A stretch of 64,000 nt of DNA from an uncultured Geobacter sp. Its GTDB lineage: Bacteria > Desulfobacterota > Desulfuromonadia > Geobacterales > CAIOGM01. Below are positions 41,898 to 60,080 of the stretch, one piece after another. The notes beneath the pieces were generated by a model. The model ran no database searches, was not told where the DNA came from, and worked only from the letters and a program-made list of their open reading frames with translations. Position 1 is the stretch's first letter. Each line of letters opens with the position of its first letter. Both the position numbers and the translations under genes were made by a program. The DNA lies in NCBI GenBank assembly GCA_903902855.1, contig CAIUWK010000040.1, forward strand, positions 8,279 to 72,278, written 5' to 3'.

Positions 41898-42188
41898 ATG
41901 CTTTTCATGTATTCCATGCTCGCCCTGGCAGGGCTCATCTTCCTTGGTTTTCTTGTCAACATCCCCCTGGGCTATATCCGACAGAACTATGAAAAGTTCT
42001 CCTTCGGTTGGTACTTCTACATCCACATCTCCATCCCCCTCATCATCTATCTCCGGGTCAAGTCCGGTTTCAGTTGGCAGATCATCCCCCTCACCGTCGG
42101 TGCGGCCATCGCAGGACAGATCGTGGGGGGAAGAATCAAGCGGCGGAGAATCCAGGAACTGCTTGCCAACCATGAAAAGCCCCTCTGA
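41898..42188 (+). CDS. Small membrane protein, unknown function
   Basis: Three hydrophobic segments in 96 aa. ATG at 41898. The upstream part of ORF 41496.. is antisense to the DUF3343-like gene. Confidence 0.5.
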   Translation: MLFMYSMLALAGLIFLGFLVNIPLGYIRQNYEKFSFGWYFYIHISIPLIIYLRVKSGFSWQIIPLTVGAAIAGQIVGGRIKRRRIQELLANHEKPL

Positions 42189-42630
42189 GCTCTCCACCCT
42201 CCTCCCCACACTCTTTACCGGCAAGCCGCTGGAGAAGCGATTTCGCGAGTCGATTATCTGGCGGGTCTGGGACAAAGCCGTGGGTCAGCCCATCGCTTCC
42301 AAGGCGCGTCCTGCCGCCTTTCGCGAAGGAACCCTCATCGTCGCGGTCACCAGTCCCCCCTGGATGCAGCAGCTCGGCTTTCTCAAGCGGCAGTTGATGG
42401 ATGCCGTCAACGGAGCGCTGGGGGAAGAGATGATCACCGACATCCACCTCAAGGCAGGCATCCTCCCCCCCCCTTATTTCCCTCCTCCCCCCCCCCCGCG
42501 CCGCCCCACCCGTCCCCTCACCCCGGAAGAGGAGAACCGTATCCGAGAGGAGACGGCGGCCGTTCACGATGAAGAGCTCCGCGCCGCCATCATTCACTGC
42601 CGTGAAGTCTGGTTGAGCAGCAGAAGTTGA
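42172..42630 (+). CDS. DUF721 / DciA-like protein with poly-proline insert
   Basis: The WxxxVG...A.P..F..GTL.V.V.S..W...L motif pattern is present. The PPPYFPPPPPPRRP segment is encoded by C9 and C11 runs. Confidence 0.65.
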   Translation: MKSPSELSTLLPTLFTGKPLEKRFRESIIWRVWDKAVGQPIASKARPAAFREGTLIVAVTSPPWMQQLGFLKRQLMDAVNGALGEEMITDIHLKAGILPPPYFPPPPPPRRPTRPLTPEEENRIREETAAVHDEELRAAIIHCREVWLSSRS

Positions 42631-47249: not shown

Positions 47250-47489
47250 TTATTCCGGCAGCTCTTCCAGAGATATCTCCAAAGAAAGTTCCCGGAGTAG
47301 CTCCCCCGCCTCCTCTTCCCGGCCGGCAGGAATAATTATCCGAACGATTCCGTCCTTGGCATCCACGGTACTGACGGTGGCCACCCCGTCATAAGCCTCG
47401 AAGATGAAGTGAAGATACCAGATATCTTTCCGGTTGACCCGGAAGAGACGAAGCAAGGTATCACTGAAAGTAGTGGCGACTCTCTGCAT
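47250..47489 (-). CDS. Small conserved protein (DUF4911-like)
   Basis: 79 aa. YLHFIFEAYDGVATVSTVD..GIVRI resembles DUF4911 as I remember it. Confidence 0.5.
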   Translation of the reverse strand: MQRVATTFSDTLLRLFRVNRKDIWYLHFIFEAYDGVATVSTVDAKDGIVRIIIPAGREEEAGELLRELSLEISLEELPE

Positions 47490-47542
47490 CTTCGGAAAAT
47501 AGCACGCGCCATTTAATATGACAAGTGCTCCGACATTTTAAT

Positions 47543-47571
47543 TGACAACACGAACAACCGCTAGTATTAAT
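47543..47571 (+). promoter_or_regulatory. Sigma70-type promoter for the PilZ / HD-GYP operon
   Basis: TTGACA (47543-48), a 17-nt spacer, then TATTAA (47566-71), 34 nt upstream of the ATG. Confidence 0.55.
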
Positions 47572-47604
47572 AAAAATTAACCATTACTCTTCCAGAGGCC
47601 ATCC

Positions 47605-49641
47605 ATGGGCACTCCAGTCGCTACCACTTCCGACAACACCGAGGCCACCACCGGCAAACATAATTACGTCACACGACGGTTCATTGTCAACAAATTGAAT
47701 TATATCAATTTCCAGAACCGAACCGTACAGGTCAACCTGAGGCATGTCAAATACGACAATACCACCATACTCCTCGCCTCCCCCCTTCCCTGCAGCGGAG
47801 AACTCCTGGAATGTAGCTGGGAGGAACCGTCAGAACTGGGCACTCTACTGAGAACTCACCGGTTCCAAAATCTGCTGATTCTGGATGAGGAAAAGCTCTA
47901 TCTGGTAACGCCAAAAGTACTCCGTCTGGATGAATCGGGGATGAGTCTGCAGTTACCGGAAAACGGTTGTGAAGTCTTTTCCAGGAAGATTTGCCGTCAT
48001 CCCTGCGTCGGTATCGCGGTCCGGTTTATTCAGAACAGCATCCTTTTTACCGGGTTCCTTGCCGATTTCAACCCCGTATCGTTCAGGATAAAACTGGAGC
48101 TTTCCCCTGACCAGACTTTTCGCTGGATCGACGGGGAAACCACGGCAGTCATCATCCTGGAGGCGGAAGGCTCTCTCCTCTATTCCGGTGAATGCCGCAT
48201 CATCAGGCACGACGCCGGACAGAGTCGGCGAGACTACGTGCTTGAACCCATTGACAACGGTAACCGAAGAAGGTTCCGGCCCAAGAAATATCGCAGCACC
48301 CGCCAGGAACTCATTCCTGCCCCCACCATCGAGTTCCGTCATCCGTTCACCCGGAGAAAGATAACTCTCAAGATCCTGGATATCTCCGGTGGGGGATTTT
48401 CCGTGGAAGAGACTTCAAGGGTTTCCGTACTGCTGCCGGGAATGATCCTCCCGGAGATAGAGTTGAACTTCGCCGGCAGCTTCCGGATTACCTGCAGGTG
48501 TCAGGTGATCTATCGGAATCCCGTCGAAACAACCGGAGAAGAATCTCTTGTCAAGTGCGGCATCGCCATTCTTAACATGGATGCCGACGATCATCTGAAA
48601 CTCTTATCCCTGCGACAACAGGCAGCCAACAGGAAATCATATATCGGCGCCAGCGTGGAGATGGATGCACTCTGGAATTTTTTCTTCGCCTCCGGCTTCG
48701 TCTACCCGGGAAAATATGCATATTTCGAGAGCAACAAGGAAGAAATCAAGCGCCTCTATGACAAACTCTACGACCAAAGCCCCCATATCGCCCGACACTT
48801 CATCTACCAGGATCGGGGTGTAATCCTGGGGCACATGGCAATGATCCGCTTTTTTGAAAATTCCTGGCTGATCCACCATCACGCAGCAAGCAAAAATGAA
48901 TCAATGCGGGCGGGGGTCGCCGTGCTGAACCAGATCGGGCAATTCATCAATGATTCCCATGCTATCGGCTCTCTACGAATGAATTATGTTTTATGCTATT
49001 TCCGCCCTGACAACAAATTTCCGGACCGGATCTTCGGCGGTCTCGCCCGGAATCTGAAGGCGCCGCGGGAGTGCTCTCTTGACACCTTCGCCTATTTCCA
49101 CTTCCATCCGGAGGCTCAACCAGCGGAAGAACTCCCCTCGACCTGGCTCATCGAACCGGCGGACATCGATGACCTGCGGGAGTTGTCCCGCTTTTACCGG
49201 CATACCTCGGGGGGGCTGATGCTGGATGCAGTGGATCTGACGCCGGATACGGCGACATGTCGCAAGCTCACCGATGAGTACCGGAAACTGGGGTTCAAGA
49301 AAGAACGTTATCTTTATTCCCTGAAAAAAGAGGGAGAGCTCAAGGCGTTCGCCATGGTCAACATCTCGGACATTGGTCTCAACATGTCGAATCTCACCAA
49401 CTGCCCCACGATTATCATCCTGGGCGATGAAGTTAACAAAGTCATTCTATCCCGTTTTCTGTCATGTATCGCCGTGAAGTACGACGGGAACGAACTCCCG
49501 GTCCTCCTCTACCCCGCCACCCATGCCATGAAATGCTCCGTCTCCACCGAGAAACTATACACGCTCTGGGTGCTTGACATGCAGTATACCGACCATTATT
49601 TCCGTTATCTGGAAAATCTGATCAAGCATATTCAACTCTGA
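47605..49641 (+). CDS. PilZ-domain protein with large unassigned C-terminal region
   Basis: Canonical c-di-GMP motifs R221RRFR225 ... D259ISGGG264. An upstream degenerate PilZ-like segment carries RKICR but no DxSxxG. Residues from about 340 to 678 have no motif I can assign. Confidence 0.8.
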   Translation: MGTPVATTSDNTEATTGKHNYVTRRFIVNKLNYINFQNRTVQVNLRHVKYDNTTILLASPLPCSGELLECSWEEPSELGTLLRTHRFQNLLILDEEKLYLVTPKVLRLDESGMSLQLPENGCEVFSRKICRHPCVGIAVRFIQNSILFTGFLADFNPVSFRIKLELSPDQTFRWIDGETTAVIILEAEGSLLYSGECRIIRHDAGQSRRDYVLEPIDNGNRRRFRPKKYRSTRQELIPAPTIEFRHPFTRRKITLKILDISGGGFSVEETSRVSVLLPGMILPEIELNFAGSFRITCRCQVIYRNPVETTGEESLVKCGIAILNMDADDHLKLLSLRQQAANRKSYIGASVEMDALWNFFFASGFVYPGKYAYFESNKEEIKRLYDKLYDQSPHIARHFIYQDRGVILGHMAMIRFFENSWLIHHHAASKNESMRAGVAVLNQIGQFINDSHAIGSLRMNYVLCYFRPDNKFPDRIFGGLARNLKAPRECSLDTFAYFHFHPEAQPAEELPSTWLIEPADIDDLRELSRFYRHTSGGLMLDAVDLTPDTATCRKLTDEYRKLGFKKERYLYSLKKEGELKAFAMVNISDIGLNMSNLTNCPTIIILGDEVNKVILSRFLSCIAVKYDGNELPVLLYPATHAMKCSVSTEKLYTLWVLDMQYTDHYFRYLENLIKHIQL

Positions 49642-49660
49642 GACCAGGACCGGCGCTTCG

Positions 49661-51595
49661 ATGACGTCATTTCAAACGTCTCCACTGCTCTACAACAGCA
49701 GAATAATCGACACCTACATGAAACTGATCAGAAACCGGTACAGCTATGTGAATGTCACTGAACTGTTGAGTCATGCCGGCATGAAACCCTACGAGATCGC
49801 GGATCAGGGGCACTGGTTCACCCAGGAGCAGGTAAACCGGTTCTATGAAAAACTGGTCTCCATGACCAAGAACGAGAATATCGCACGAGAGGCGGGACGC
49901 TACGCCGCTTCACCGGACGCCATCGGCGTCATGCGTCAGTATATCCTCGGCATGGTCACTCCGGCCACGGTGTATGAACTGATCGGGAAAGCCTCTGCAA
50001 ATTTCACCCGTTCGTCCAGGTACGAATCAAAGAGACTCTCCCCCTCCCAGATAGAGATAACCGTCACCCCCCATGAGGGGGTAACCGAACAGCGCTTTCA
50101 GTGTGAAAACCGGTTCGGCTTTTTTGACGCAATCGTCAACATCTATCAAAACAAATTTCCCAAAATCGAACATCCCGAATGCCTGTTCACCGGCGGGAAA
50201 GTCTGTCGCTATATCATCTCCTGGGAAAACTCCCCCTCCATCTACTGGGGGAGAATCAGGAACTATTCACTCCTCCCGCTGCTGTCGCTCAACCTGCTCC
50301 TGGCGCTCCTGGATGAATGGACCCTGCTTGAATTATCCGGCCCGCTCTCTCTGGCACTGTATCTGTTTCTGACGCTGATCACCAAAAACCGGGAAGCAGA
50401 GGAGATGAAGACAAGTCTCGAAAACACGCGGGATTCGGTGGATTCCCTGCTGGAACAGATCAACCGGAACTACAACAACGCCCTCATGGCCAACGAGATC
50501 GGAAGAGCCATAAGCATCCATACGTCGGTCCCGGAGATCCTGACCAGTGTGAGTCAGATCATGGAAAACCGCCTGGATTTCGATCGAGGTCTCATCCTGC
50601 TTGCCGACAAGAAACGGACTGAATTGGTTCTCTGCGCCGGCTACGGCTACTCGGAGGAAAATATTCAGTTAATACGCAACAGCTCGTTCCATCTGGATCG
50701 CCCGGAGGCCCGGGGTATTTTCGTCGTGTCATTCCATGAGAGAAAACCGTTTCTGGTGAATGATCTCAATGACATCGAAGAGTCGCTCTCTCCCCGGAGC
50801 GTAGAGTTCGCTCGACAGATGGGAAGCCGCTCGTTCATCTGTTGCCCCATCGTCTACTCGGACAGATCCCTGGGGATCGTGGCGGTGGACAACGTCAACT
50901 CCAAAAGGCCGCTCATCGAGAGCGACATGAGCCTCCTCATGGGGATAGCTTCGTCTCTGGGAATAAGCCTCAGGAACGCCGAATATCTGGAATCAAGCAT
51001 CAGGCAGTTCAACTCCATCATCCAGGTACTGGCGGCCAGCATCGACGCACGGGACAACCTCACTTCCGGTCATTCGAAAAAAGTCACCGAATACGCCTTG
51101 GGAATCTGCGATGAACTGGGGCTTAACGGTGACTATCGGAAAATGATCCAGGTGGCGGCTCTCCTCCACGACTACGGTAAGATCGGGGTGCCTGACGCCA
51201 TCCTCAAAAAACAGGGATCCCTGACGTCGGATGAATACGAGGCCGTCAAGCAGCATGCGGACAAATCACGGGAAATTCTGGAGCAGATCAACTTCGAAGG
51301 GATGTACCGGCAGATTCCGGAAATCGTGGGGGCTCACCACGAGAAGATCGACGGGACCGGCTATCCTCGCGGACTCAAGGGGATGGAGATTCCGGTGGGG
51401 GCACGGATCATCTCGGTGGCTGACTATTTCGAGGCCATCACCGCCAAGAGACATTACCGGGACCCCATGCCGGTGGAAGAGGCGTTCAAACTCCTGCGGG
51501 GGGAAATAGGGGTGCATTTCGACGAAAGCTACGTGGAGGCCCTGATTGCCTCTTATATCAGGAGCAACTCATCCCCCAAAAGCGGAACCGATTGA
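49661..51595 (+). CDS. Sensor - 2TM - GAF - HD-GYP c-di-GMP phosphodiesterase
   Basis: HD (LLHDYGKIGVP) and GYP (HHEKIDGTGYPRGL) motifs. A GAF-like middle follows two hydrophobic helices. The N-terminal domain of about 200 aa has an unresolved family. Confidence 0.88.
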   Translation: MTSFQTSPLLYNSRIIDTYMKLIRNRYSYVNVTELLSHAGMKPYEIADQGHWFTQEQVNRFYEKLVSMTKNENIAREAGRYAASPDAIGVMRQYILGMVTPATVYELIGKASANFTRSSRYESKRLSPSQIEITVTPHEGVTEQRFQCENRFGFFDAIVNIYQNKFPKIEHPECLFTGGKVCRYIISWENSPSIYWGRIRNYSLLPLLSLNLLLALLDEWTLLELSGPLSLALYLFLTLITKNREAEEMKTSLENTRDSVDSLLEQINRNYNNALMANEIGRAISIHTSVPEILTSVSQIMENRLDFDRGLILLADKKRTELVLCAGYGYSEENIQLIRNSSFHLDRPEARGIFVVSFHERKPFLVNDLNDIEESLSPRSVEFARQMGSRSFICCPIVYSDRSLGIVAVDNVNSKRPLIESDMSLLMGIASSLGISLRNAEYLESSIRQFNSIIQVLAASIDARDNLTSGHSKKVTEYALGICDELGLNGDYRKMIQVAALLHDYGKIGVPDAILKKQGSLTSDEYEAVKQHADKSREILEQINFEGMYRQIPEIVGAHHEKIDGTGYPRGLKGMEIPVGARIISVADYFEAITAKRHYRDPMPVEEAFKLLRGEIGVHFDESYVEALIASYIRSNSSPKSGTD

Positions 51596-51602
51596 AGGTG
51601 AG

Positions 51603-52406
51603 TTACCGCCGGGTTCCCCGGCAGAGGATGAGCGGCGTATAGGTAAAACGGCGGGGATCGGCAAAAAATGCCCTGAATTCTTCCAGGAATTCAGGGTAAC
51701 CGCCGGCATACTCCACAAACGGGAAACCGGAATGCCTGGCAGCGACTTCGATCTTCCGGCTCCAGTTGTAGGCGTCAACATCACTCAGGTTGCCGTAAAT
51801 CAGATGATGCGACGTCACGTCCACGGCGATCTGTTCCAATCCGTTGTCATAGAGAAAAGCATAGAGCTTCCTCCCCACATAGGGATCAAAATCGAAATCA
51901 CGTTCAATGAGCGCCATGAGTCCGTTGAGGGTAGTTTCAAGGCGTGGTGAAAGGGGGTAGTGGGTAAGGCAATTATAATCCAGATCGATGAGACAGAGCA
52001 CCCCCCCCGGATTCAGCAAAGAGATCAGGTTTTTCACGATTTCAGCGGCAGCAGAACGGTGGTATTCCAGCAGGAAGCGAACCCAGATGAAATCGAAACC
52101 ACCCAGGTCACCGAGCGGCAGGCAGATGTCCCGGCAGACGAACTCTATCCCGGCAACTCCGTACCGCGTACGGGCATGCTCGACTCGTGACTCCGAGGCA
52201 TCCACCCCCAGAACCGTCCCGCCCGGCCCGACCAGGTCAAAGAGGTACGAAGTCGTTTTGCCGGAACCGCACCCGAAATCGGCCACCCGCATCCCCGGCG
52301 TCACTCCGGCCCAGAGTGCCTGCCGGTTGACGGCGGCGCGGTCGGTTTTCAGATCCAGACGCAGGGCCTCTTCCTCATGTTCCATGAGATAACGGTTTTC
52401 CGGCAT
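51603..52406 (-). CDS. Class I SAM-dependent methyltransferase
   Basis: Motif I VADFGCGSGKTT, 267 aa. Confidence 0.8.
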   Translation of the reverse strand: MPENRYLMEHEEEALRLDLKTDRAAVNRQALWAGVTPGMRVADFGCGSGKTTSYLFDLVGPGGTVLGVDASESRVEHARTRYGVAGIEFVCRDICLPLGDLGGFDFIWVRFLLEYHRSAAAEIVKNLISLLNPGGVLCLIDLDYNCLTHYPLSPRLETTLNGLMALIERDFDFDPYVGRKLYAFLYDNGLEQIAVDVTSHHLIYGNLSDVDAYNWSRKIEVAARHSGFPFVEYAGGYPEFLEEFRAFFADPRRFTYTPLILCRGTRR

Positions 52407-52473: not shown

Positions 52474-53739
52474 ATGGCATGCAAAAACTCGATCCGAAAC
52501 GGAGTACTCTTCTTTTTCGCGCTGTGCGGTTTCACCTCCGTCGCCCAGGGATCGGGCTACGGTCTCTTCACCCAGGGAGCATCCCCCCTGGGCCAGGCAG
52601 ACGCCGTGGTCGCCCACTGTGACGGCGCGTCGACGCTCTTCTTCAATCCTGCGCTCATGAGTAAACTACCGGGAACCCGGGTGGAAATAGGCACAACCCT
52701 GCTCTTTCCCACTCGCCATTACACGGCTCCCGACGGGTACACGGCAAGCACCAAGGATACGGTTTTTACTCCCAGCACCTTTTACCTGACCCACACCTTC
52801 AACGACAAGATCAGCGCCGGTCTGGCGGTATTTAACCCCTTCGGGCTGGGAACCGACTGGGGGAGTAATTGGGGAGGGGCTTATGGTGGCCAATACATTG
52901 CAACGAAGTCGGAACTGACGACCTGGGAGATCAACCCGGCAGTTTCATACCGGATACTGCCGGCGCTTTCCGTCGCAGCCGGGCTTGACGTTCTGTTGCT
53001 CAACGCAACTCTCGAAAACAAAAATCTGTCAACCACTTACGGTTTCCCTACCCGTTTTGATGTTGCGCAAAAATTCACCGGTTCAGGCAACGGAGTAGGT
53101 TACAATTTCGGCCTATCGTTGGAATTGCCCTACGATATCTCTTTTGGCGCTTCGTACAGGAGTCAGGTAACCATCGACGTGGATGGCGATTTTACTGCCG
53201 ATGTCCTTTCCCAAAGCGTCGGAGGCAAGACAACAGTGAAGCTTCCCCAACAGGTTTTCGCCGGAGTTGCCTACAAACCGACGGATCGAATGACGCTGGA
53301 AGCCGGAATGCGCTGGGAAGATTGGAGCTCATTCCAACAGCTGCAAATCCAATTTGCCCCCAACATATTCGGTCTGCCCTCTCCTTCTCCCTCTCCCCGC
53401 GACTGGCACAGCAGCTACGCCTTCAACCTGGGGGGTAAATTCAAGATCAACGATACCTTTTCCCTTATGGCGGGGTACCTGCACGGCTGGAATCCGGTGC
53501 CGGACAGCACCTTTGACCCGTCAATACCTGATTCGGACACCAATCTCTATACCTTCGGCGGGGAAGCCCGTTACCACGGCTTTACCCTGGGGTTGGCCTA
53601 TGGCTACCAGATGCAGAGCGCCCGTTACAAGTCCGACAACGCTTACGCCCCTACACCTCTCAATGCCTCTGCCTCTGCCGATGGCACCTACGAAACCGAC
53701 CTCCACCTGGTGGGGTTGAGCCTGGGATACACGTTTTAA
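52474..53739 (+). CDS. Outer-membrane hydrophobic-compound transporter (FadL/OMPP1/TodX family)
   Basis: Signal peptide, an N-terminal G(Y)GLFTQGA hatch-like motif, beta-barrel alternation, and a C-terminal aromatic residue (GYTF). Confidence 0.8.
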   Translation: MACKNSIRNGVLFFFALCGFTSVAQGSGYGLFTQGASPLGQADAVVAHCDGASTLFFNPALMSKLPGTRVEIGTTLLFPTRHYTAPDGYTASTKDTVFTPSTFYLTHTFNDKISAGLAVFNPFGLGTDWGSNWGGAYGGQYIATKSELTTWEINPAVSYRILPALSVAAGLDVLLLNATLENKNLSTTYGFPTRFDVAQKFTGSGNGVGYNFGLSLELPYDISFGASYRSQVTIDVDGDFTADVLSQSVGGKTTVKLPQQVFAGVAYKPTDRMTLEAGMRWEDWSSFQQLQIQFAPNIFGLPSPSPSPRDWHSSYAFNLGGKFKINDTFSLMAGYLHGWNPVPDSTFDPSIPDSDTNLYTFGGEARYHGFTLGLAYGYQMQSARYKSDNAYAPTPLNASASADGTYETDLHLVGLSLGYTF

Positions 53740-54629
53740 GTTCCCTGCAGCGCCACTACTCCTGCCCGCCCCTCGATCTCTCCCATGCTCAAGGGGGAAT
53801 CAGGGGCCCCCTTGCCGAACTCCACGGCAGCCTCCGCCAGGGTGATGAACCGGCACCCCAGAGCAGTCAACCGCTCCAAAAGGTCCACAAAAATTGCAGC
53901 GGTCGCCTTCCCTTCCAGTTCCGCATGGATGGTCAGCACGTTGAGTCCCGGAGTGATGAGGGAGAGATAGTGGTCGTTGAGCGTCTGAGTCGTGATCCCG
54001 TTTTCACCCAGCAGTTCATCGGTGGTGGGGAGGGTGGTGGGAAGTTGCAGAGTCCGGAACCGCCGCCCCTCCCAGACCGGATAGAAGGGGGCGCGGCCGC
54101 GACTGTCGCTGCTGTACTCAAGCTTCAGTGCGTCCTGCACCTCCAGGGAAGCGGCAGAGACCATCCACCCCGGCGCGGCCACCGTTTTTGTCCGGTGGCC
54201 GAAGATCTCCTCATAGACGGCGCTGGCCTGTCCCATTTCCAGGGCCACGGTGGGCTTCAGCATTCGGGGGAGATAGTCGTGCCACTTCACATGGTCCCAG
54301 CAGTGGATTCCCACCTCATGCCCCTCCTGCTCCGTCCGGCGGATAATCTCGCCAGAACGCGCCCCGATCATGGGAGGGGGTAACAGCGTACCGTAGAGGA
54401 GGGTACGCAGGCCATAGACCGACGGCGCCCGGGTCCGGATCATCTTGGCGAGAAACCCTTTTCGGGTAAAGATGCGTCGGATGGCCTTACCGGAGTTATC
54501 CGGGCCCAGGGAGAAGTAGAAGGTCCCCCGGATGCCGAACCGCCGGAAGAGGTCCAGCAGCGCCGGAACCCCGTCTCGGGTGCCGATAAAGGTGTCCACA
54601 TCAACTTTCAGGGCAATGACTGGGAGCAT
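53736..54629 (-). CDS. Polysaccharide deacetylase family protein (ArnD-like deformylase)
   Basis: LKVDVDT ... HCWDH NodB-type motifs. Start at ATG 54629. The longer ORF start only translates the heptamer array. Confidence 0.75.
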   Translation of the reverse strand: MLPVIALKVDVDTFIGTRDGVPALLDLFRRFGIRGTFYFSLGPDNSGKAIRRIFTRKGFLAKMIRTRAPSVYGLRTLLYGTLLPPPMIGARSGEIIRRTEQEGHEVGIHCWDHVKWHDYLPRMLKPTVALEMGQASAVYEEIFGHRTKTVAAPGWMVSAASLEVQDALKLEYSSDSRGRAPFYPVWEGRRFRTLQLPTTLPTTDELLGENGITTQTLNDHYLSLITPGLNVLTIHAELEGKATAAIFVDLLERLTALGCRFITLAEAAVEFGKGAPDSPLSMGEIEGRAGVVALQGT

Positions 54630-54636
54630 AATATCC

Positions 54637-54733
54637 AGGTTCAAGGTTAGAGGTTCAAGGTTCGAGGCCGAGGTTCGAGGTTCAAGGTTCAAGGTTCAAG
54701 GTTCAAGGTTCAAGGTTCAAGGTTCAAGGTTCA
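54637..54733. repeat. 14-unit heptamer array, consensus AGGTTCA (8 perfect consecutive copies at the 3' side)
   Basis: The array reads aggttca aggttag aggttca aggttcg aggccg aggttcg, then aggttca x8. Confidence 0.95.
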
Positions 54734-58100: not shown

Positions 58101-58948
58101 TATCGAACCTCCTCTTCCGGCTCACGTTCCGGAAAGGTGTTGACGCCGGCGAAGTCGCCGACGGATTTATAGATCCGGACACCGTCCCACGGCTCGTCAA
58201 GGATGCCGTCGTGGATCGCCCAGCTTCGCCCCCGAACGGTCAGCTCCGCACCCGGCATCCGGAAAGGGGTAGAGCCGTCCAGCCGAGAGAAAAGCCTCCC
58301 ACCGGGACGAAACTCCTCATTGATCCGCAGCATGAGGGTCCGGCCGGTGAGATAGTCGAACCCGTATTTTTCGTACCGGATGGCGTTGTCGTAGGAAAGC
58401 GGCTCCGCCGTGATGATATCCACACCTAGGCCATCCACGAAGCGCTCGAACCGGGGAAAAAACTCGGTGAACAACCGCAACCCCCGGCGAACCTGATTGG
58501 GGAAGAGTCCCGCCTGCATGGAGCGAAGCTCTTCAGGAATATTGCGCCCCAGGGAGGCGAACCAGTTATCCTTCCCCATGGCATCCACATCCACCTGGAA
58601 ACGGGGCGCATCGGGATCGGTGATGATGCAGAAGGAGAGTTCGATCTGATGATAGGCGGTATCGGAGATCTCCAGGAAAAAGAGCGGGTCCCGCTCCCCG
58701 GGGCTCCGTCGGGCCACGATTCGGGTGAACCCCAGACCAACCGGAGCGATGAACTCCACCGAGGGGGCGCCGTCAGCTCCCAAGGAAGCTTCGGGGGTAA
58801 TCCCCAGGACAGAGAAGAGCCGCGGCGGAAGGAGTGCCCGGTAAAGCCGCTCCTTCTCCTGCACGTCCAGGACGTTGATCTCCCGCAGGGAACAGAGCGG
58901 CTTCCCCAGGCGGGTAACGAGCTGTTCATTCCCCGGAAGTCGTGGCAT
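58100..58948 (-). CDS. Conserved hypothetical protein with GNAT-like C-terminal signature
   Basis: The segment VRRGLRLFTEFFPRFERFVDGLGVDIITAEPLSYDNAIRYEKYGFDY resembles GNAT motif A/B (…N.AI.lYEK.GF). This was judged by eye only. Confidence 0.6.
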   Translation of the reverse strand: MPRLPGNEQLVTRLGKPLCSLREINVLDVQEKERLYRALLPPRLFSVLGITPEASLGADGAPSVEFIAPVGLGFTRIVARRSPGERDPLFFLEISDTAYHQIELSFCIITDPDAPRFQVDVDAMGKDNWFASLGRNIPEELRSMQAGLFPNQVRRGLRLFTEFFPRFERFVDGLGVDIITAEPLSYDNAIRYEKYGFDYLTGRTLMLRINEEFRPGGRLFSRLDGSTPFRMPGAELTVRGRSWAIHDGILDEPWDGVRIYKSVGDFAGVNTFPEREPEEEVR

Positions 58949-60080
58949 AGGTCCCGATGATCACCGGAAAGATCCGCTTCCGGATGGCTGAAATACTCTT
59001 CTCCACCTCGTCCAGCGCCCGGTTCCGGTCCCCCTCTTCGGCCCAGTACATGGCGTCCAGCAGCATGGTATTGGCGCACCCCATCTCCGAGATGGTCCGG
59101 ATGAATTCCACCGGGAGCCGGGGGGAGAGCTCCACCCCGTTCATGATCCCCCAGGCGATGGTCCAGGCCCGGGCCACATTCACCAGGTCATACCCTCCCC
59201 CCCCCAGGGCCACCCAGGGAATCCGCAACGCCTTAAGCTTTCGAAGGACATAGGAGTAGCTGTGGGTGGTGATCTCCAGCCGCGAGAGAGGGTCGGTGCG
59301 GAAGGTGTCGGCCCCCAACTGGGTAACCAGGACATCGGGATTGTAGGCGGCGATGAGAGGATAGGCGACCTCGTCGAAGGCCTTCATGAAGAGGGCGTCG
59401 TCGGTATGCTCCATGAGGGGGACGTTTACCGAATACCCCTTCCCCGCCCCCTTCCCCGTCTCATGTTCGAAACCGGTGCCGGGAAAAAAATGGAGCCCGG
59501 TTTCGTGGAGGGAGATGGTGAGCACCCGGTCGGTGTCGTAGTACGCCTCCTGTACCCCGTCGCCATGATGGGCATCCAGGTCCAGGTAGACGACCCGCAA
59601 CCCTTGGGCCACCAGCTGGTTGATGGCCACCACCGCATCATTCAGATAGGAAAAGCCCGAAGCCCGGCCCCTGTGGGCATGATGCAGGCCGCCGGCAAGG
59701 TTGAAGGCGATATCATACCCCTCCCGGGTCACCAGGCGGGCCGCCTCCAGGGTCCCGGCGGTGCAGAGGCGGGCCCAGTCGTAGAAGCCGGGGAAGACCG
59801 GATTCTCCACATCCCCCAGGCCATAGCGGAAATCGGCCCGGGAATCGGTGGAATCGTTGAACTCGGCCAGTCGCCGGAGATAGTCGGAGGAATGAAAGGT
59901 CAGGAGTTCGGCGTCACTCACCCTCCCGCACTCCCGGATATGGGCGTTCTTCAGGCGGGTCAGGCCGTACGCTTCCATGAGATCAAAGGCCAGCCGGTAG
60001 CGCTGCACCTTGAAGGGGTGGTAGTCGCCATAGGAACAGGCGCTGAAATCGTGGGAGTAGACGAGGGCTGTTCTGGTCAT
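58926..60080 (-). CDS. Histone-deacetylase-family (AcuC/arginase-fold) deacetylase
   Basis: GGLHHAHRGRASGFSYLND and DLDAHHGDGVQ zinc/catalytic motifs, 384 aa. Confidence 0.9.
   Translation of the reverse strand: MTRTALVYSHDFSACSYGDYHPFKVQRYRLAFDLMEAYGLTRLKNAHIRECGRVSDAELLTFHSSDYLRRLAEFNDSTDSRADFRYGLGDVENPVFPGFYDWARLCTAGTLEAARLVTREGYDIAFNLAGGLHHAHRGRASGFSYLNDAVVAINQLVAQGLRVVYLDLDAHHGDGVQEAYYDTDRVLTISLHETGLHFFPGTGFEHETGKGAGKGYSVNVPLMEHTDDALFMKAFDEVAYPLIAAYNPDVLVTQLGADTFRTDPLSRLEITTHSYSYVLRKLKALRIPWVALGGGGYDLVNVARAWTIAWGIMNGVELSPRLPVEFIRTISEMGCANTMLLDAMYWAEEGDRNRALDEVEKSISAIRKRIFPVIIGTYATTSGE

Follow-up and report, generated by a model that had tools for sequence, protein, structure and literature searches.

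A gene pair in an uncultured Geobacter sp. raises the question of what a PilZ protein does when its C-terminal half matches no known domain, and why it lies beside a gene for a cyclic di-GMP (c-di-GMP) phosphodiesterase. The pair was found in a 64,000-nucleotide stretch of DNA (here, the window). A first-pass annotation had described it as an AT-richer module in which a c-di-GMP receptor, possibly an acyltransferase-like enzyme, is cotranscribed with a signal-gated c-di-GMP degrader. Our best overall explanation, to which we give about an even chance, is that gene 1 encodes a c-di-GMP-gated acyltransferase with HD-GYP and methyltransferase partners; this activity is a prediction.

The gene pair and its candidate promoter

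Both open reading frames (Table 1) and the 19-nt gap between them, which contains AGGA, were confirmed in the ORF list and by reading the sequence. The sigma-70 promoter proposed for the pair is present one base to the left of where it had been placed (TTGACA at 47542-47547, spacer of 17, and TATTAA at 47565-47570; score, 10/12), but the segment of about 30 nt that holds it is absent in the two closest orthologous loci (L004 and L086). It is therefore a plausible candidate, neither conserved nor proven. In the window, 11 site calls on both strands score 10/12, compared with 4.0 +/- 1.9 in shuffled sequences; these represent 10 distinct positions because 47542 scores with two spacers. A consensus promoter scan of the window did not list TTGACA-17-TATTAA at 47542 because position 6 of the -10 box is A.

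Table 1. Features of the gene pair and its downstream neighbors (window coordinates)
Feature	Coordinates	Strand	Description	Basis
Candidate sigma-70 promoter	47542..47570	+	TTGACA-17-TATTAA, 35 nt upstream of gene 1 ATG	Sequence read
Gene 1	47605..49641	+	678 aa; N-terminal barrel D1, two PilZ-type barrels, predicted tandem GNAT-fold domain	ORF list, homologues, AF2, Foldseek
D1 (aa 20-126)	47662..47982	+	Extra beta-rich N-terminal domain	Secondary structure (AF2 model)
D2 (aa 127-215)	47983..48249	+	PilZ-like barrel; R127xxxR131, D154-F-N-x-x-S	Family conservation, Foldseek
D3 (aa 223-340)	48271..48624	+	PilZ barrel and C-terminal helix; R223/K227/R230/R233, D259-I-S261-G-G-G264	Pfam, conservation
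Lobe 1 (aa 350-505)	48652..49119	+	GNAT-like, best-conserved part; W421, H425, A436-G437, N470, S491, D493	Topology, Foldseek
Lobe 2 (aa 510-678)	49132..49638	+	GNAT-like	AF2 secondary structure, Foldseek
Gene 2	49661..51595	+	644 aa; H-NOX-like sensor, hydrophobic hairpin, GAF, HD-GYP phosphodiesterase	ORF list, Pfam, AF2, Foldseek
H-NOX-fold domain (aa 1-190)	49661..50230	+	Predicted; C148/H171/C174/C182, no proximal His	AF2, Foldseek, profile, conservation
Hydrophobic stretch (aa 202-243)	50264..50389	+	Possible two-helix membrane hairpin	Kyte-Doolittle
GAF domain (aa 288-439)	50522..50977	+		Pfam GAF/GAF_2/GAF_3, E 2e-12
HD-GYP domain (aa 456-622)	51026..51526	+	HD at 503, HHEKIDGTGYP at 559-569	Pfam HD_5, E 4.9e-42
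Class I SAM methyltransferase	51603..52406	-	267 aa, convergent	Pfam Methyltransf_25/11/31
FadL/TodX-family outer-membrane channel	52474..53739	+	ORF listed from 52405; likely true start M24	Pfam Toluene_X, E 5.5e-55

The C-terminal half of gene 1

PilZ is the sole Pfam match of the gene 1 protein, residues 340-678 matching nothing, and no GNAT (acyl-CoA N-acyltransferase) was recognized with this protein in Pfam, NCBIfam, or PDB sequence searches. Among 62 family members, Pfam GNAT gave four weak matches (best E value, 3.7e-4). In the AF2 model (pLDDT 81), residues ~340-678 are predicted to fold as a tandem GNAT, the order of secondary structure across residues 350-678 being consistent with two GNAT units. 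Foldseek matched the C-terminal half to VipF, the Clostridium acetobutylicum glucosamine N-acetyltransferase, 3tt2, 2wpw, MshD, N-myristoyltransferase (NMT), and Eis, with E values from 3e-8 to 1e-4. The tandem-GNAT matches have a probability of 1.0 and 8-13% sequence identity; target-normalized TM-scores are low (0.39-0.47), and the output does not give the query ranges matched. In lobe 1, the beta/alpha order agrees with GNAT topology, and the matches include VipF, 5kf1, 3tt2, MshD, and NMT. The earlier suggestion of an acyltransferase-like enzyme fold is thus supported, and the structures retrieved are tandem-GNAT enzymes rather than a known nonenzymatic scaffold.

The gene 1 family comprises more than 1,500 full-length homologues of fixed architecture (747 clusters at 50% identity) in at least 562 species genomes. 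The conserved residues of the GNAT half are shared by members that are 30-54% identical; H398, H410, H425, N470, S491, D493, D523, S535, N593, and S595 are invariant or nearly so, and lobe 2 has the conserved loops SGGLML (535-540) and N593-x-S595-x-x-T598-N599. The pyrophosphate-binding motif Q/RxxGxG/A is partial, reading x-K/R-A-G-x-x at 434-439.

The N-terminal half of gene 1

The N-terminal half resembles, in its predicted structure, the two-barrel c-di-GMP receptors of the YcgR/MrkH type; Foldseek matched it to MrkH, YcgR, PlzA, MotI, PP4397, and VCA0042 (E values, 7e-9 to 1e-5). D1 is missing from a subfamily of about 530 aa, and P0140, P0151, and P0187 are shorter members. In D2, R127 is kept in 51 and R131 in 53 of the 62 family members, and the family consensus at D154-F-N-x-x-S is D-F-S-x-x-S/A. 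An hhalign comparison of D2 with D3 covers the motif region only and is not significant. For D3, the Pfam PilZ register was read off family member P0160; the match in gene 1 itself (aa 239-334; 20.3 bits) falls under the 22.5 cutoff.

The strings RRRFR and DISGGG both occur in gene 1, and the former had been taken as a c-di-GMP motif. It is not a motif of the family: R221 and R225 are unconserved, and the R221A/R225A controls proposed on that basis are therefore misaimed. The basic positions that the family does conserve are R223, K/R227, R230, and R233, together with R127xxxR131 one barrel earlier.

Have these barrels ceased to bind c-di-GMP and taken on a structural or other regulatory role, with the adjacent HD-GYP gene reflecting a shared sensor input? 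Both textbook motifs deviate in part: the first motif of D3 is [KR]xxRxxR in place of RxxxR, the second motif of D2 has S/A in place of G, and the Pfam score is subthreshold. Binding has been lost in many N-terminal xPilZ domains (bioRxiv 10.1101/814665), and in some loci the HD-GYP output is exchanged for a histidine kinase (see below). However, the D-h-S-x-x-G motif is conserved in 59-60 of the 62 members (S261 and G264) with its hydrophobic h position retained, R230 and R233 are conserved in 57, and Pfam PilZ matches 46 members, with E values down to 6.5e-11. Moreover, Myxococcus PixB binds c-di-GMP though motif 2 deviates in both of its PilZ domains. We consider loss of binding distinctly improbable and favor c-di-GMP binding by gene 1.

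The sensor protein encoded by gene 2

The architecture proposed for gene 2, sensor-GAF-HD-GYP, was borne out: Pfam detected GAF (288-437) and HD-GYP (456-622), and the HD and HHExxDGxGYP motifs are intact. The N-terminal domain had been left unassigned; the sequence ECLFTGGKVCRYIISW, given as its end, is located in gene 2. In the AF2 model (pLDDT 90.8), this domain has a predicted H-NOX fold that appears to keep a Cys-His-Cys-Cys zinc site and lacks the heme-binding His. Foldseek TM-scores to the Shewanella oneidensis and T. tengcongensis H-NOX proteins are 0.66-0.75, and a profile alignment pairs the HxxC-x7-C motif with that of S. oneidensis H-NOX (So). Conservation analysis of the domain found both the heme-binding proximal His and YxSxR missing. 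The two transmembrane helices described earlier are less clear. A 40-residue hydrophobic stretch (202-241) exists, but D/E residues interrupt it, its first half is short, and one 19-residue Kyte-Doolittle window (center 231; maximum, 1.8) exceeds 1.6.

Conserved neighborhood

The most constant neighbor of gene 1 is the convergent methyltransferase, which the first-pass annotation overlooked. It is present, in convergent orientation, in 50 of 56 species loci of the gene 1 family; reciprocally, 36 of 38 loci searched from the methyltransferase side have a gene 1 homologue. At the junction, its stop codon lies 7 nt from that of gene 2. NCBIfam gave it no specific assignment.

The constancy of this partner, packed tightly 3' to 3', bears on whether the tandem GNAT might be a dead pseudoenzyme, with gene 1 acting as a c-di-GMP-dependent adaptor that binds and regulates the methyltransferase or another partner. 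Action through binding rather than catalysis would be analogous to YcgR and MrkH, motif A is degenerate, and, as described above, the protein has no sequence-level match to any GNAT. On the other hand, the polar and His residues of lobe 1 and the interlobe loops are very strongly conserved among 30-54% identical members, a pattern seen more often in active or ligand-binding sites. Tandem GNATs, such as MshD and NMT, often pair one degenerate lobe with one active lobe, and PixB requires its acetyltransferase domain. A pseudoenzyme therefore seems unlikely to us, and we continue to regard gene 1 as a putative acyltransferase.

The HD-GYP sensor gene is adjacent to gene 1 in 29 of the 56 species loci and in all close relatives examined, so that the pair is syntenic outside the source genome. 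Receptor and degrader, however, are paired in only about half of the loci: 19 of 56 have no sensor gene nearby, and in some lineages (loci L056, L096-98, L105, L034, and L055) a histidine kinase output replaces HD-GYP on the same sensor module. The module thus does not always include a c-di-GMP feedback loop. The FadL-like gene is a looser, lineage-restricted neighbor (14 of 29 loci with an adjacent sensor gene and 0 of 27 without).

The GC content of the pair is low, as had been suspected (0.521 for gene 1 and 0.539 for gene 2 versus 0.583 for the window), about 2 standard deviations under the window mean and in the lowest 3% of same-length windows. In L011, a locus from Geobacteraceae, the pair lies 10-13 GC points under its flanks. 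Recent acquisition as an AT-richer accessory cassette is nevertheless very improbable and already largely refuted. In relatives, proteins 67-76% identical occur between the same housekeeping neighbors, within a conserved block (SecA-PPIase-Dfx-Rbr-DUF4911, PilZ gene-HD-GYP, methyltransferase, FadL-like); the surroundings in the window are core genome (Ffh, DciA, and SecA), where we found no mobile-element or defense-system signature. A GC deficit of 3-4 points recurs across species in the PilZ-GNAT, sensor, and methyltransferase genes, at about 90% of the 36-50 loci compared; it is a property of the genes themselves and does not indicate that they arrived recently. Carried by hundreds of anaerobes, with the methyltransferase and in most cases a heme-less H-NOX-like sensor enzyme alongside gene 1, the locus looks like an uncharacterized c-di-GMP-controlled modification pathway, not a local accessory operon.

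Proposed mechanism

The analysis shows the folds, the conserved motifs, the size of the family, and the synteny of three genes; binding of c-di-GMP, catalysis, the direction of regulation, the kind of signal, and the part played by the methyltransferase are inferred. Gene 1 would encode a cytoplasmic c-di-GMP receptor-enzyme in which D1 and the barrels D2 and D3 precede a tandem GNAT-fold acyltransferase. By comparison with YcgR, MrkH, and PixB, c-di-GMP would bind in the arginine-rich linkers, at R127/R131 and at R223-R233, as well as at D259xS261xxG264, and turn the barrels relative to the tandem GNAT, switching acyl transfer, in whichever direction, to some amine substrate, protein or small molecule. 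Gene 2, presumably cotranscribed, would place an HD-GYP phosphodiesterase under a heme-less zinc-Cys3His H-NOX-like domain and a GAF domain; a redox or hydrophobic-ligand signal may then cause its product to lower c-di-GMP and reset the gene 1 enzyme. The methyltransferase might belong to the same pathway, acting on the same target or product.

Comparison with known systems

By published description, the protein closest to gene 1 is probably PixB (MXAN_2604) of Myxococcus xanthus, a PilZ-PilZ-GNAT acetyltransferase that binds c-di-GMP and depends on its acetyltransferase domain; its RxxxR motifs are required for development (PMC8316039). In both proteins, two PilZ-type domains with deviating textbook motifs precede a GNAT-fold transferase, and the logic of a c-di-GMP-regulated acetyltransferase may be shared. 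However, PixB has one Pfam-recognizable GNAT, whereas gene 1 has a predicted tandem GNAT invisible to sequence models and an extra N-terminal barrel; the RxxxR motifs of PixB (R121 and R331) are 210 residues apart and the corresponding motifs of gene 1 about 100; and the taxa and neighbors differ, gene 1 adjoining a methyltransferase and an H-NOX-like sensor.

Structurally, the N-terminal half comes closest to the xPilZ-PilZ proteins YcgR, MrkH, PlzA, and MotI (about 220 aligned columns), which share its arginine-rich interbarrel linker and D-h-S-x-x-G. They are about 230 aa long and work through binding to partners or to DNA, whereas gene 1 adds a predicted 330-aa enzyme fold, and its N-terminal PilZ-like barrel retains the RxxxR that xPilZ domains have mostly lost. 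Legionella VipF, the C. acetobutylicum enzyme, mycothiol synthase MshD, NMT, and Eis likewise consist of two consecutive GNAT units, but gene 1 is only distantly similar in sequence, lacks the canonical acyl-CoA motif, and has a PilZ regulatory module that none of them has.

Mycobacterial Rv0998/MSMEG_5458 are reportedly cAMP-regulated GNAT protein acetyltransferases in which a cyclic-nucleotide-binding domain allosterically gates the fused GNAT; they differ from gene 1 in nucleotide and sensor domain, carry only one GNAT, and have lysine acetylation as a known substrate class. Caulobacter crescentus HfsK acts on holdfast polysaccharide and binds c-di-GMP, and it is not known to have a PilZ domain. 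HfsK is an N-acetyltransferase-family c-di-GMP effector (PMC5362036), comparable to gene 1 as an acyltransferase-family protein under c-di-GMP control; it is unrelated to gene 1 in sequence or synteny.

H-NOX proteins control c-di-GMP enzymes (PMC8846402). Heme-free Vibrio H-NOX senses oxidants through its Cys3-His/Gln zinc site, and conservation of the proximal His among H-NOX proteins is absolute (PMC7108781). The putative zinc ligands of gene 2 (C148/H171/C174/C182) correspond to C139/H161/C164/C172 in So (SO2144) and C149/Q171/C174/C182 in Vibrio cholerae, and their spacing matches that of the MopR site (C155/C181/C189), MopR, DmpR, and PoxR having zinc-containing phenol-sensor domains. 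Whereas the S. oneidensis and V. cholerae H-NOX proteins are stand-alone partners, the H-NOX-like domain of gene 2, with neither proximal His nor YxSxR, is fused through a putative hydrophobic hairpin and GAF to HD-GYP, or elsewhere to a kinase.

Gene pair and promoter region

Gene 1, encoding a PilZ-GNAT protein, and gene 2, encoding a sensor-GAF-HD-GYP protein, lie on the same strand with a 19-nt spacer that contains AGGA. Their GC contents (0.521 and 0.539, respectively) are in the lowest 3% of equal-length windows (0.583 for the whole window), and the two-gene arrangement described in the first-pass annotation, including the gap and the lower GC content, thus stands. The near-consensus sigma70 promoter claimed there is only partly sustained. 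The sequence TTGACA-17-TATTAA does exist 35 nt upstream of the gene 1 ATG and scores 10/12 (11 such calls in the 64-kb window versus 4.0 +/- 1.9 in shuffles). However, because it is absent from the output of the consensus promoter scan and the segment holding it is missing in the two closest orthologous loci, it is a reasonable but unproven candidate promoter.

On the opposite strand lies a promoter-like TTGTCA-17-TATTTT, preceded by a TG, whose end is only 7 nt from the ATG of the divergent DUF4911-rubrerythrin-desulfoferrodoxin genes; this would mean that either the mRNA is leaderless or the start is called wrongly. This divergent stretch, and not the gene 1 promoter, is the intergenic part conserved in two related loci, L004 and L086. 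Terminator-like hairpins occur in the region at chance frequency (6 versus 5.2 expected); a 10-bp G+C-rich hairpin flagged as terminator-like lies inside the gene 2 coding region.

Coordinates of genes and sequence features (window positions, unless a locus is named)
Feature	Location	Strand	Product (aa)	Remark
Gene 1	47605-49641	+	678	
Gene 2	49661-51595	+	644	
Methyltransferase gene	51603-52406	-	267	Class I SAM; stop 7 nt from gene 2 stop
FadL-like gene	52474-53739	+		Probable start; listed start 52405
ArnD-like gene	53736-54692	-		
HDAC/AcuC-like gene	58926-60080	-		
TTGACA-17-TATTAA	47542-47570			Candidate promoter of gene 1
TTGTCA-17-TATTTT	47496-47524	-		Promoter-like
ATG of divergent genes	47487-47489			
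Hairpin GTTACCCCCTCATGGGGGGTGAC	50063-50085	-		Terminator-like
ORF tried as GNAT reference	42136-42597	-		Dropped
Histidine kinase sensor gene, L034	11286-14219	-		
Histidine kinase sensor gene, L055	10870-13752	-		
Histidine kinase sensor gene, L056	10062-12335	+		
Histidine kinase sensor gene, L096	5973-8213	-		

PilZ barrels and tandem GNAT fold of gene 1

The gene 1 family comprises more than 1,500 matches, nearly all of 670 to 735 amino acids and full length, with a fixed architecture; current database labels for its members are only “PilZ domain-containing” or “hypothetical.” A scan by sequence pattern, with a single genome for each species, found it in at least 562 species genomes (562 of the 599 returned stretches were confirmed). 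The C-terminal 339 residues, used as query, yielded 747 clusters at 50% identity, and in most of the 150 best of these the domain occupies about positions 340 to 680 of a protein of ~680 residues. The best 80 loci are labelled Geobacterales, Desulfuromonadales, Desulfobacterales, and Desulfatiglandales, include metagenome-assembled genomes (MAGs) labelled Nitrospirota, Nitrospinaceae, and Planctomycetota, and contain the cultured carriers Geomonas silvestris, G. limicola, and G. azotofigens.

Pfam and NCBIfam recognize in gene 1 only a subthreshold PilZ domain (PF07238, residues 239 to 334; 20.3 bits, cut-off 22.5) and nothing at residues 340 to 678, while 46 of 62 family members match Pfam PilZ at an E value of ≤1 (best, 6.5e-11). 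An AlphaFold2 model built with 32 homologues as input (mean pLDDT, 81) was compared with the PDB by Foldseek, where the targets fall cleanly into two groups, c-di-GMP receptors and tandem-GNAT enzymes. The receptor group has the YcgR-like two-barrel form (MrkH, YcgR, PlzA, MotI, PP4397, and VCA0042; E values of 7e-9 to 1e-5 over ~220 columns). In the third of the three successive barrels (D1 to D3), modelled strands at 241 to 325 and a helix at 327 to 341 make up a six-stranded PilZ barrel with its C-terminal helix, and comparison with the isolated YcgR PilZ domain (5y6g) gave a target-normalized TM score of 0.73 and an rmsd of 2.8.

Motif conservation was assessed in a 62-sequence alignment (29 to 54% identity to the window protein). 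In D3 (residues 223 to 340), D259-I-S261-G-G-G264 fits [D/N]hSxxG, with the Ser present in 60/62 sequences and the Gly in 59/62. Basic residues precede it (R223-x3-K/R227-x2-R230-x2-R233), and R230 and R233 are each found in 57/62; R221 and R225, which had been proposed as the c-di-GMP residues of an RRRFR motif, are both unconserved in this alignment. In a relative, P0160, the PilZ match starts at model position 2, and by this register R230 takes the place of the second Arg of RxxxR; the position of the first Arg falls, in the Pfam register, on a residue that is not basic. Because D2 (residues 127 to 215) keeps R127xxxR131 (51 to 53 of 62) with a variant second motif (D-F-S/N-x-x-S/A) and D3 keeps D-h-S-x-x-G, gene 1 has the look of two PilZ domains in tandem whose deviations complement each other, with a further barrel, D1 (residues 20 to 126), in front; D1 is absent from a subfamily of ~530 residues. 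When D1, D2, and D3 were compared with each other by hhalign, none of the alignments was significant (probabilities of 1 to 13% across barrel and lobe comparisons), and the nonsignificant D2-D3 alignment fell exactly on the D-x-S-x-x-G region; D2 is taken as a putative PilZ domain solely from its structure and motifs. That the barrels have lost c-di-GMP binding, a view to be weighed with the non-basic position of D3 and the variant motif of D2 on one side and with the conserved S261, G264, R230, and R233 on the other, strikes us as quite improbable.

The tandem-GNAT targets of the model are VipF, a Clostridium acetobutylicum glucosamine N-acetyltransferase, 3tt2, 1sqh, 2wpw, MshD, N-myristoyltransferase (NMT), and Eis (E values of 3e-8 to 1e-4 over 280 to 360 columns). 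The Foldseek probability is 1.0 for VipF, 5kf1, 3tt2, 2wpw, MshD, NMT, and Eis, with modest target-normalized TM scores (0.39 to 0.47) and an output that carries no aligned query ranges. In the model, the order of helices and strands at residues 350 to 505 (lobe 1) and 510 to 678 (lobe 2) fits that of GNAT (b1-a1-a2-b2-b3-b4-a3-b5-a4-b6) twice, and four weak Pfam GNAT matches occur among the 62 relatives. These three observations support, at the level of fold, the tentative guess in the first-pass annotation that the C-terminal half is acyltransferase-like. The half itself has no match in Pfam, NCBIfam, or PDB sequences (phmmer), nor does the 62-sequence family profile find one. An ORF elsewhere in the window, tried as the source of a reference GNAT profile, was dropped as spurious.

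In lobe 1, b4 (WLIHHHAA) is followed by a conserved K/R435-A436-G437, a partial counterpart of the pyrophosphate-binding motif A (Q/RxxGxG/A, b4-a3); motif A was not found in lobe 2, and internal homology between the lobes was not significant by hhalign. We think it unlikely, but somewhat less so than a loss of c-di-GMP binding, that the tandem GNAT is catalytically dead and that gene 1 serves as a c-di-GMP-dependent adaptor for the neighbouring methyltransferase.

Rare family members carry additional domains. A complete PilZ-GNAT protein is preceded by a fused NERD domain and Ser/Thr kinase in P0127 (1209 aa) and P0160 (1220 aa), a hint of protein-level signalling. In P0223 (647 aa), a peptide-binding PqqD domain lies C-terminal of the GNAT part, perhaps through an error of gene calling.

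The H-NOX-like sensor and HD-GYP domain of gene 2

Pfam and NCBIfam place a GAF domain at residues 288 to 437 of gene 2 and HD_5/HD-GYP at residues 456 to 622 (E value of 5e-42; 144 bits versus a cut-off of 27.2). With HD at 503 and HHEKIDGTGYP at 559 to 569 intact, gene 2 is a predicted HD-GYP c-di-GMP phosphodiesterase. The “two TM helices” reported earlier correspond to a 40-residue hydrophobic stretch with no more than a single 19-residue window above the usual threshold; on topological grounds, it is likely a hairpin.

Residues 1 to 200 have no convincing Pfam or NCBIfam match, and their model (pLDDT, 90.8) has an H-NOX fold. Foldseek pairs it with H-NOX domains from Shewanella oneidensis, T. 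tengcongensis, and Nostoc and with that of soluble guanylate cyclase (TM scores of 0.58 to 0.75; for the matches at 0.66 to 0.75, rmsd of 3.4 to 3.8 Å over ~190 columns) and, more weakly, with the phenol-sensor domains of MopR, DmpR, and PoxR, which contain zinc. The family profile pairs IEHPEC-x7-C of gene 2 with ISHDTC-x7-C of the S. oneidensis protein. C148 (33/33 homologues), H171 (31/33), C174 (32/33), and C182 (32/33) correspond to the zinc ligands of S. oneidensis H-NOX (C139/H161/C164/C172) and Vibrio H-NOX (C149/Q171/C174/C182) (PMC7108781) and of MopR (C155/C181/C189) (PMC9556785), and in the alignment of 33 homologues they match the Cys3-His/Gln zinc site of the gammaproteobacterial H-NOX subgroup.

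The proximal His is absolutely conserved in H-NOX proteins (PMC7108781). Although the fold matches, the counterpart of S. oneidensis H103 is absent from gene 2: between positions 95 and 131, no position has His in more than 2 of the 33 homologues. The haem-propionate motif YxSxR is likewise absent, the stretch reading V-T-E143-Q-R (family consensus, x-x-E-K-P) in a register inferred from the profile-alignment offset. By these defining features, the domain has an H-NOX fold but is not a haem H-NOX. Its input may be read in two ways: by analogy, it may perform thiol/zinc redox sensing, as haem-free Vibrio H-NOX does (PMC7108781), or, like the sensors of the MopR class, it may bind a small hydrophobic molecule.

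A conserved unit of three genes

For the synteny counts, we used the 56 species loci in which the sequence extends 3.3 kb or more downstream from the gene 1 orthologue. A sensor gene follows directly on the same strand in 29 of them, and a convergent methyltransferase gene comes next in 25 of these 29. In 23 of the 27 loci that have no adjacent sensor gene, the methyltransferase gene converges directly on the gene 1 orthologue; overall, it is nearby in 50/56. The reverse test, which started from methyltransferase homologues in metagenome contigs and counted loci with at least 3 kb of room, found a PilZ-GNAT gene within 2.6 kb in 36/38. Six loci, with or without a sensor gene, have no methyltransferase gene within 8 kb of the PilZ-GNAT gene (L029, L056, L061, L063, L066, and L069).

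The sensor module (H-NOX-like domain, hydrophobic stretch, and GAF) also reappears with other outputs. Among the 27 loci without an adjacent sensor gene, 8 have the module just upstream of the methyltransferase gene; L034 and L055, the two that were examined, show it fused to PAS-HisKA-HATPase-REC. In L056 (G. azotofigens) and L096, a module with histidine kinase output occupies the gene 2 position; L097, L098, and L105 give the same truncated match and are probably alike. Some of these outputs are plain kinases, and others are hybrids with PAS and a receiver domain. The synteny counts and the reappearing module thus define a conserved unit of three genes (sensor module, PilZ-GNAT, and methyltransferase), in which HD-GYP is the commonest output but not the only one. 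All-against-all clustering of flanking ORFs yielded no further gene common beyond the order level.

The methyltransferase could be assigned to no specific family in NCBIfam or the PDB, and its best PDB relative, 3mgg, is itself uncharacterized. PADLOC matches that might have suggested a relation to defence systems (“mad2” for the methyltransferase and Cas3-HD) reflect generic domain similarity and were set aside.

A FadL/TodX channel gene follows the module in 14 of the 29 loci with an adjacent sensor gene versus none of the 27 without, a distribution that fits the hydrophobic-ligand reading of the gene 2 sensor. The listed FadL-like ORF of the window begins 2 nt inside the divergent methyltransferase gene. 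Because M24 opens a typical signal peptide (MACKNSIRNGVLFFFALCGFTSVAQG), translation probably starts at 52474, and the two divergent genes would then be separated by 67 nt, an arrangement also seen in relatives. Converging on it, with stop regions overlapping by 4 nt (53736-53739), is a homologue of ArnD-like 4-deoxy-4-formamido-L-arabinose-phosphoundecaprenol deformylase (NCBIfam E value of 5e-71, below the cut-off); L004 and L028 show these two genes side by side as well. Farther on, 7 kb downstream of the putative acyltransferase gene, is a member of the histone deacetylase family (HDAC/AcuC-like), with no conserved linkage seen in the 8-kb flanks examined.

Origin of the operon

The first-pass annotation had taken the low GC content as a sign of accessory origin, a suggestion that does not hold. 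Relatives with 67 to 76% identical proteins share the full block (SecA, PPIase, desulfoferrodoxin, rubrerythrin, DUF4911, PilZ-GNAT, HD-GYP, methyltransferase, and FadL-like), and the wider window is core genome (Ffh, DciA, and SecA). Moreover, across 36 to 50 loci of different species, the PilZ-GNAT, sensor, and methyltransferase genes run 3 to 4 GC points lower than their surroundings in about 90% of cases; for the 50 loci taken from L004 to L083, the mean deficits versus the rest of the locus are 4.0, 4.0, and 3.2 points, with lower values in 89 to 94% of loci. Because the deficit recurs across species, AT-richness is a property of these genes and not a sign of recent acquisition here; amino-acid composition, low expression, or repeated transfer may be its cause. 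Against the conserved block and the shared deficit, a recently acquired accessory cassette is essentially excluded.

Proposed mechanism

We consider it about an even chance that gene 1 is a c-di-GMP-gated tandem-GNAT acyltransferase that is reset by gene 2, with the methyltransferase in the same pathway. In the PilZ tandem, c-di-GMP would bind both at the linkers rich in arginine and at the D-h-S-x-x-G site; the PilZ tandem would then shift against the tandem GNAT and gate acyl transfer to some amine. The putatively co-transcribed HD-GYP enzyme would lower c-di-GMP once the H-NOX-like/GAF sensor is triggered, and the methyltransferase may act on the same substrate or product as gene 1. We infer this binding, gating, acyl transfer, and methyltransferase role from the observed folds, motif conservation, and synteny.

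More tentatively, and with the balance tilted against it, sensor, dual-PilZ tandem-GNAT effector, and dedicated methyltransferase may constitute a hitherto undescribed pathway under second-messenger control, in which one common target is both acylated and methylated. Its haem-less zinc-thiolate H-NOX-like/GAF sensor would have interchangeable outputs (HD-GYP or histidine kinase), and the module occurs widely among anaerobic Thermodesulfobacteriota as well as among MAGs labelled Nitrospirota and Planctomycetota. The outcome might be a protein modification of a new kind or else a hydrophobic small molecule whose exchange proceeds via the associated FadL-type channel.

Comparison with known systems

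To our knowledge, few c-di-GMP effectors are enzymes whose chemistry the messenger switches directly. In the full-text literature on PilZ, GNAT, acetyltransferase, and c-di-GMP, only PixB and HfsK were found; HfsK is a non-PilZ c-di-GMP effector, and PixB is essentially the sole described PilZ-linked acyltransferase. GNAT fusions are unmentioned in the PilZ census of Galperin and Chou (bioRxiv 10.1101/814665), and literature texts gave no link between the gene 1 family and GSU1240, the Geobacter PilZ gene of biofilm engineering.

Myxococcus xanthus PixB, a PilZ-PilZ-GNAT protein, binds c-di-GMP, requires its acetyltransferase domain, has no known substrate, and needs its RxxxR motifs for development (PMC8316039). 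Compared by description, it is the closest described protein to gene 1, which likewise has two PilZ-type domains N-terminal to a predicted GNAT transferase. Unlike PixB, the gene 1 family has a cryptic tandem GNAT, an extra barrel, a different motif spacing, a dedicated methyltransferase, and an H-NOX-like sensor, and no Myxococcota occur among the 160 loci retrieved with gene 1 or methyltransferase homologues. Gene 2 adds a haem-less H-NOX-fold domain to the known inputs of c-di-GMP turnover. The gene 1 family is far larger than the PixB precedent (at least 562 species genomes and 747 clusters at 50% identity), and its size, fixed architecture, dedicated partner, defined sensor, and cultured Geomonas carriers thus offer, in sediment and metal-reducing anaerobes, a tractable route to c-di-GMP-gated acyl transfer beyond that single case.
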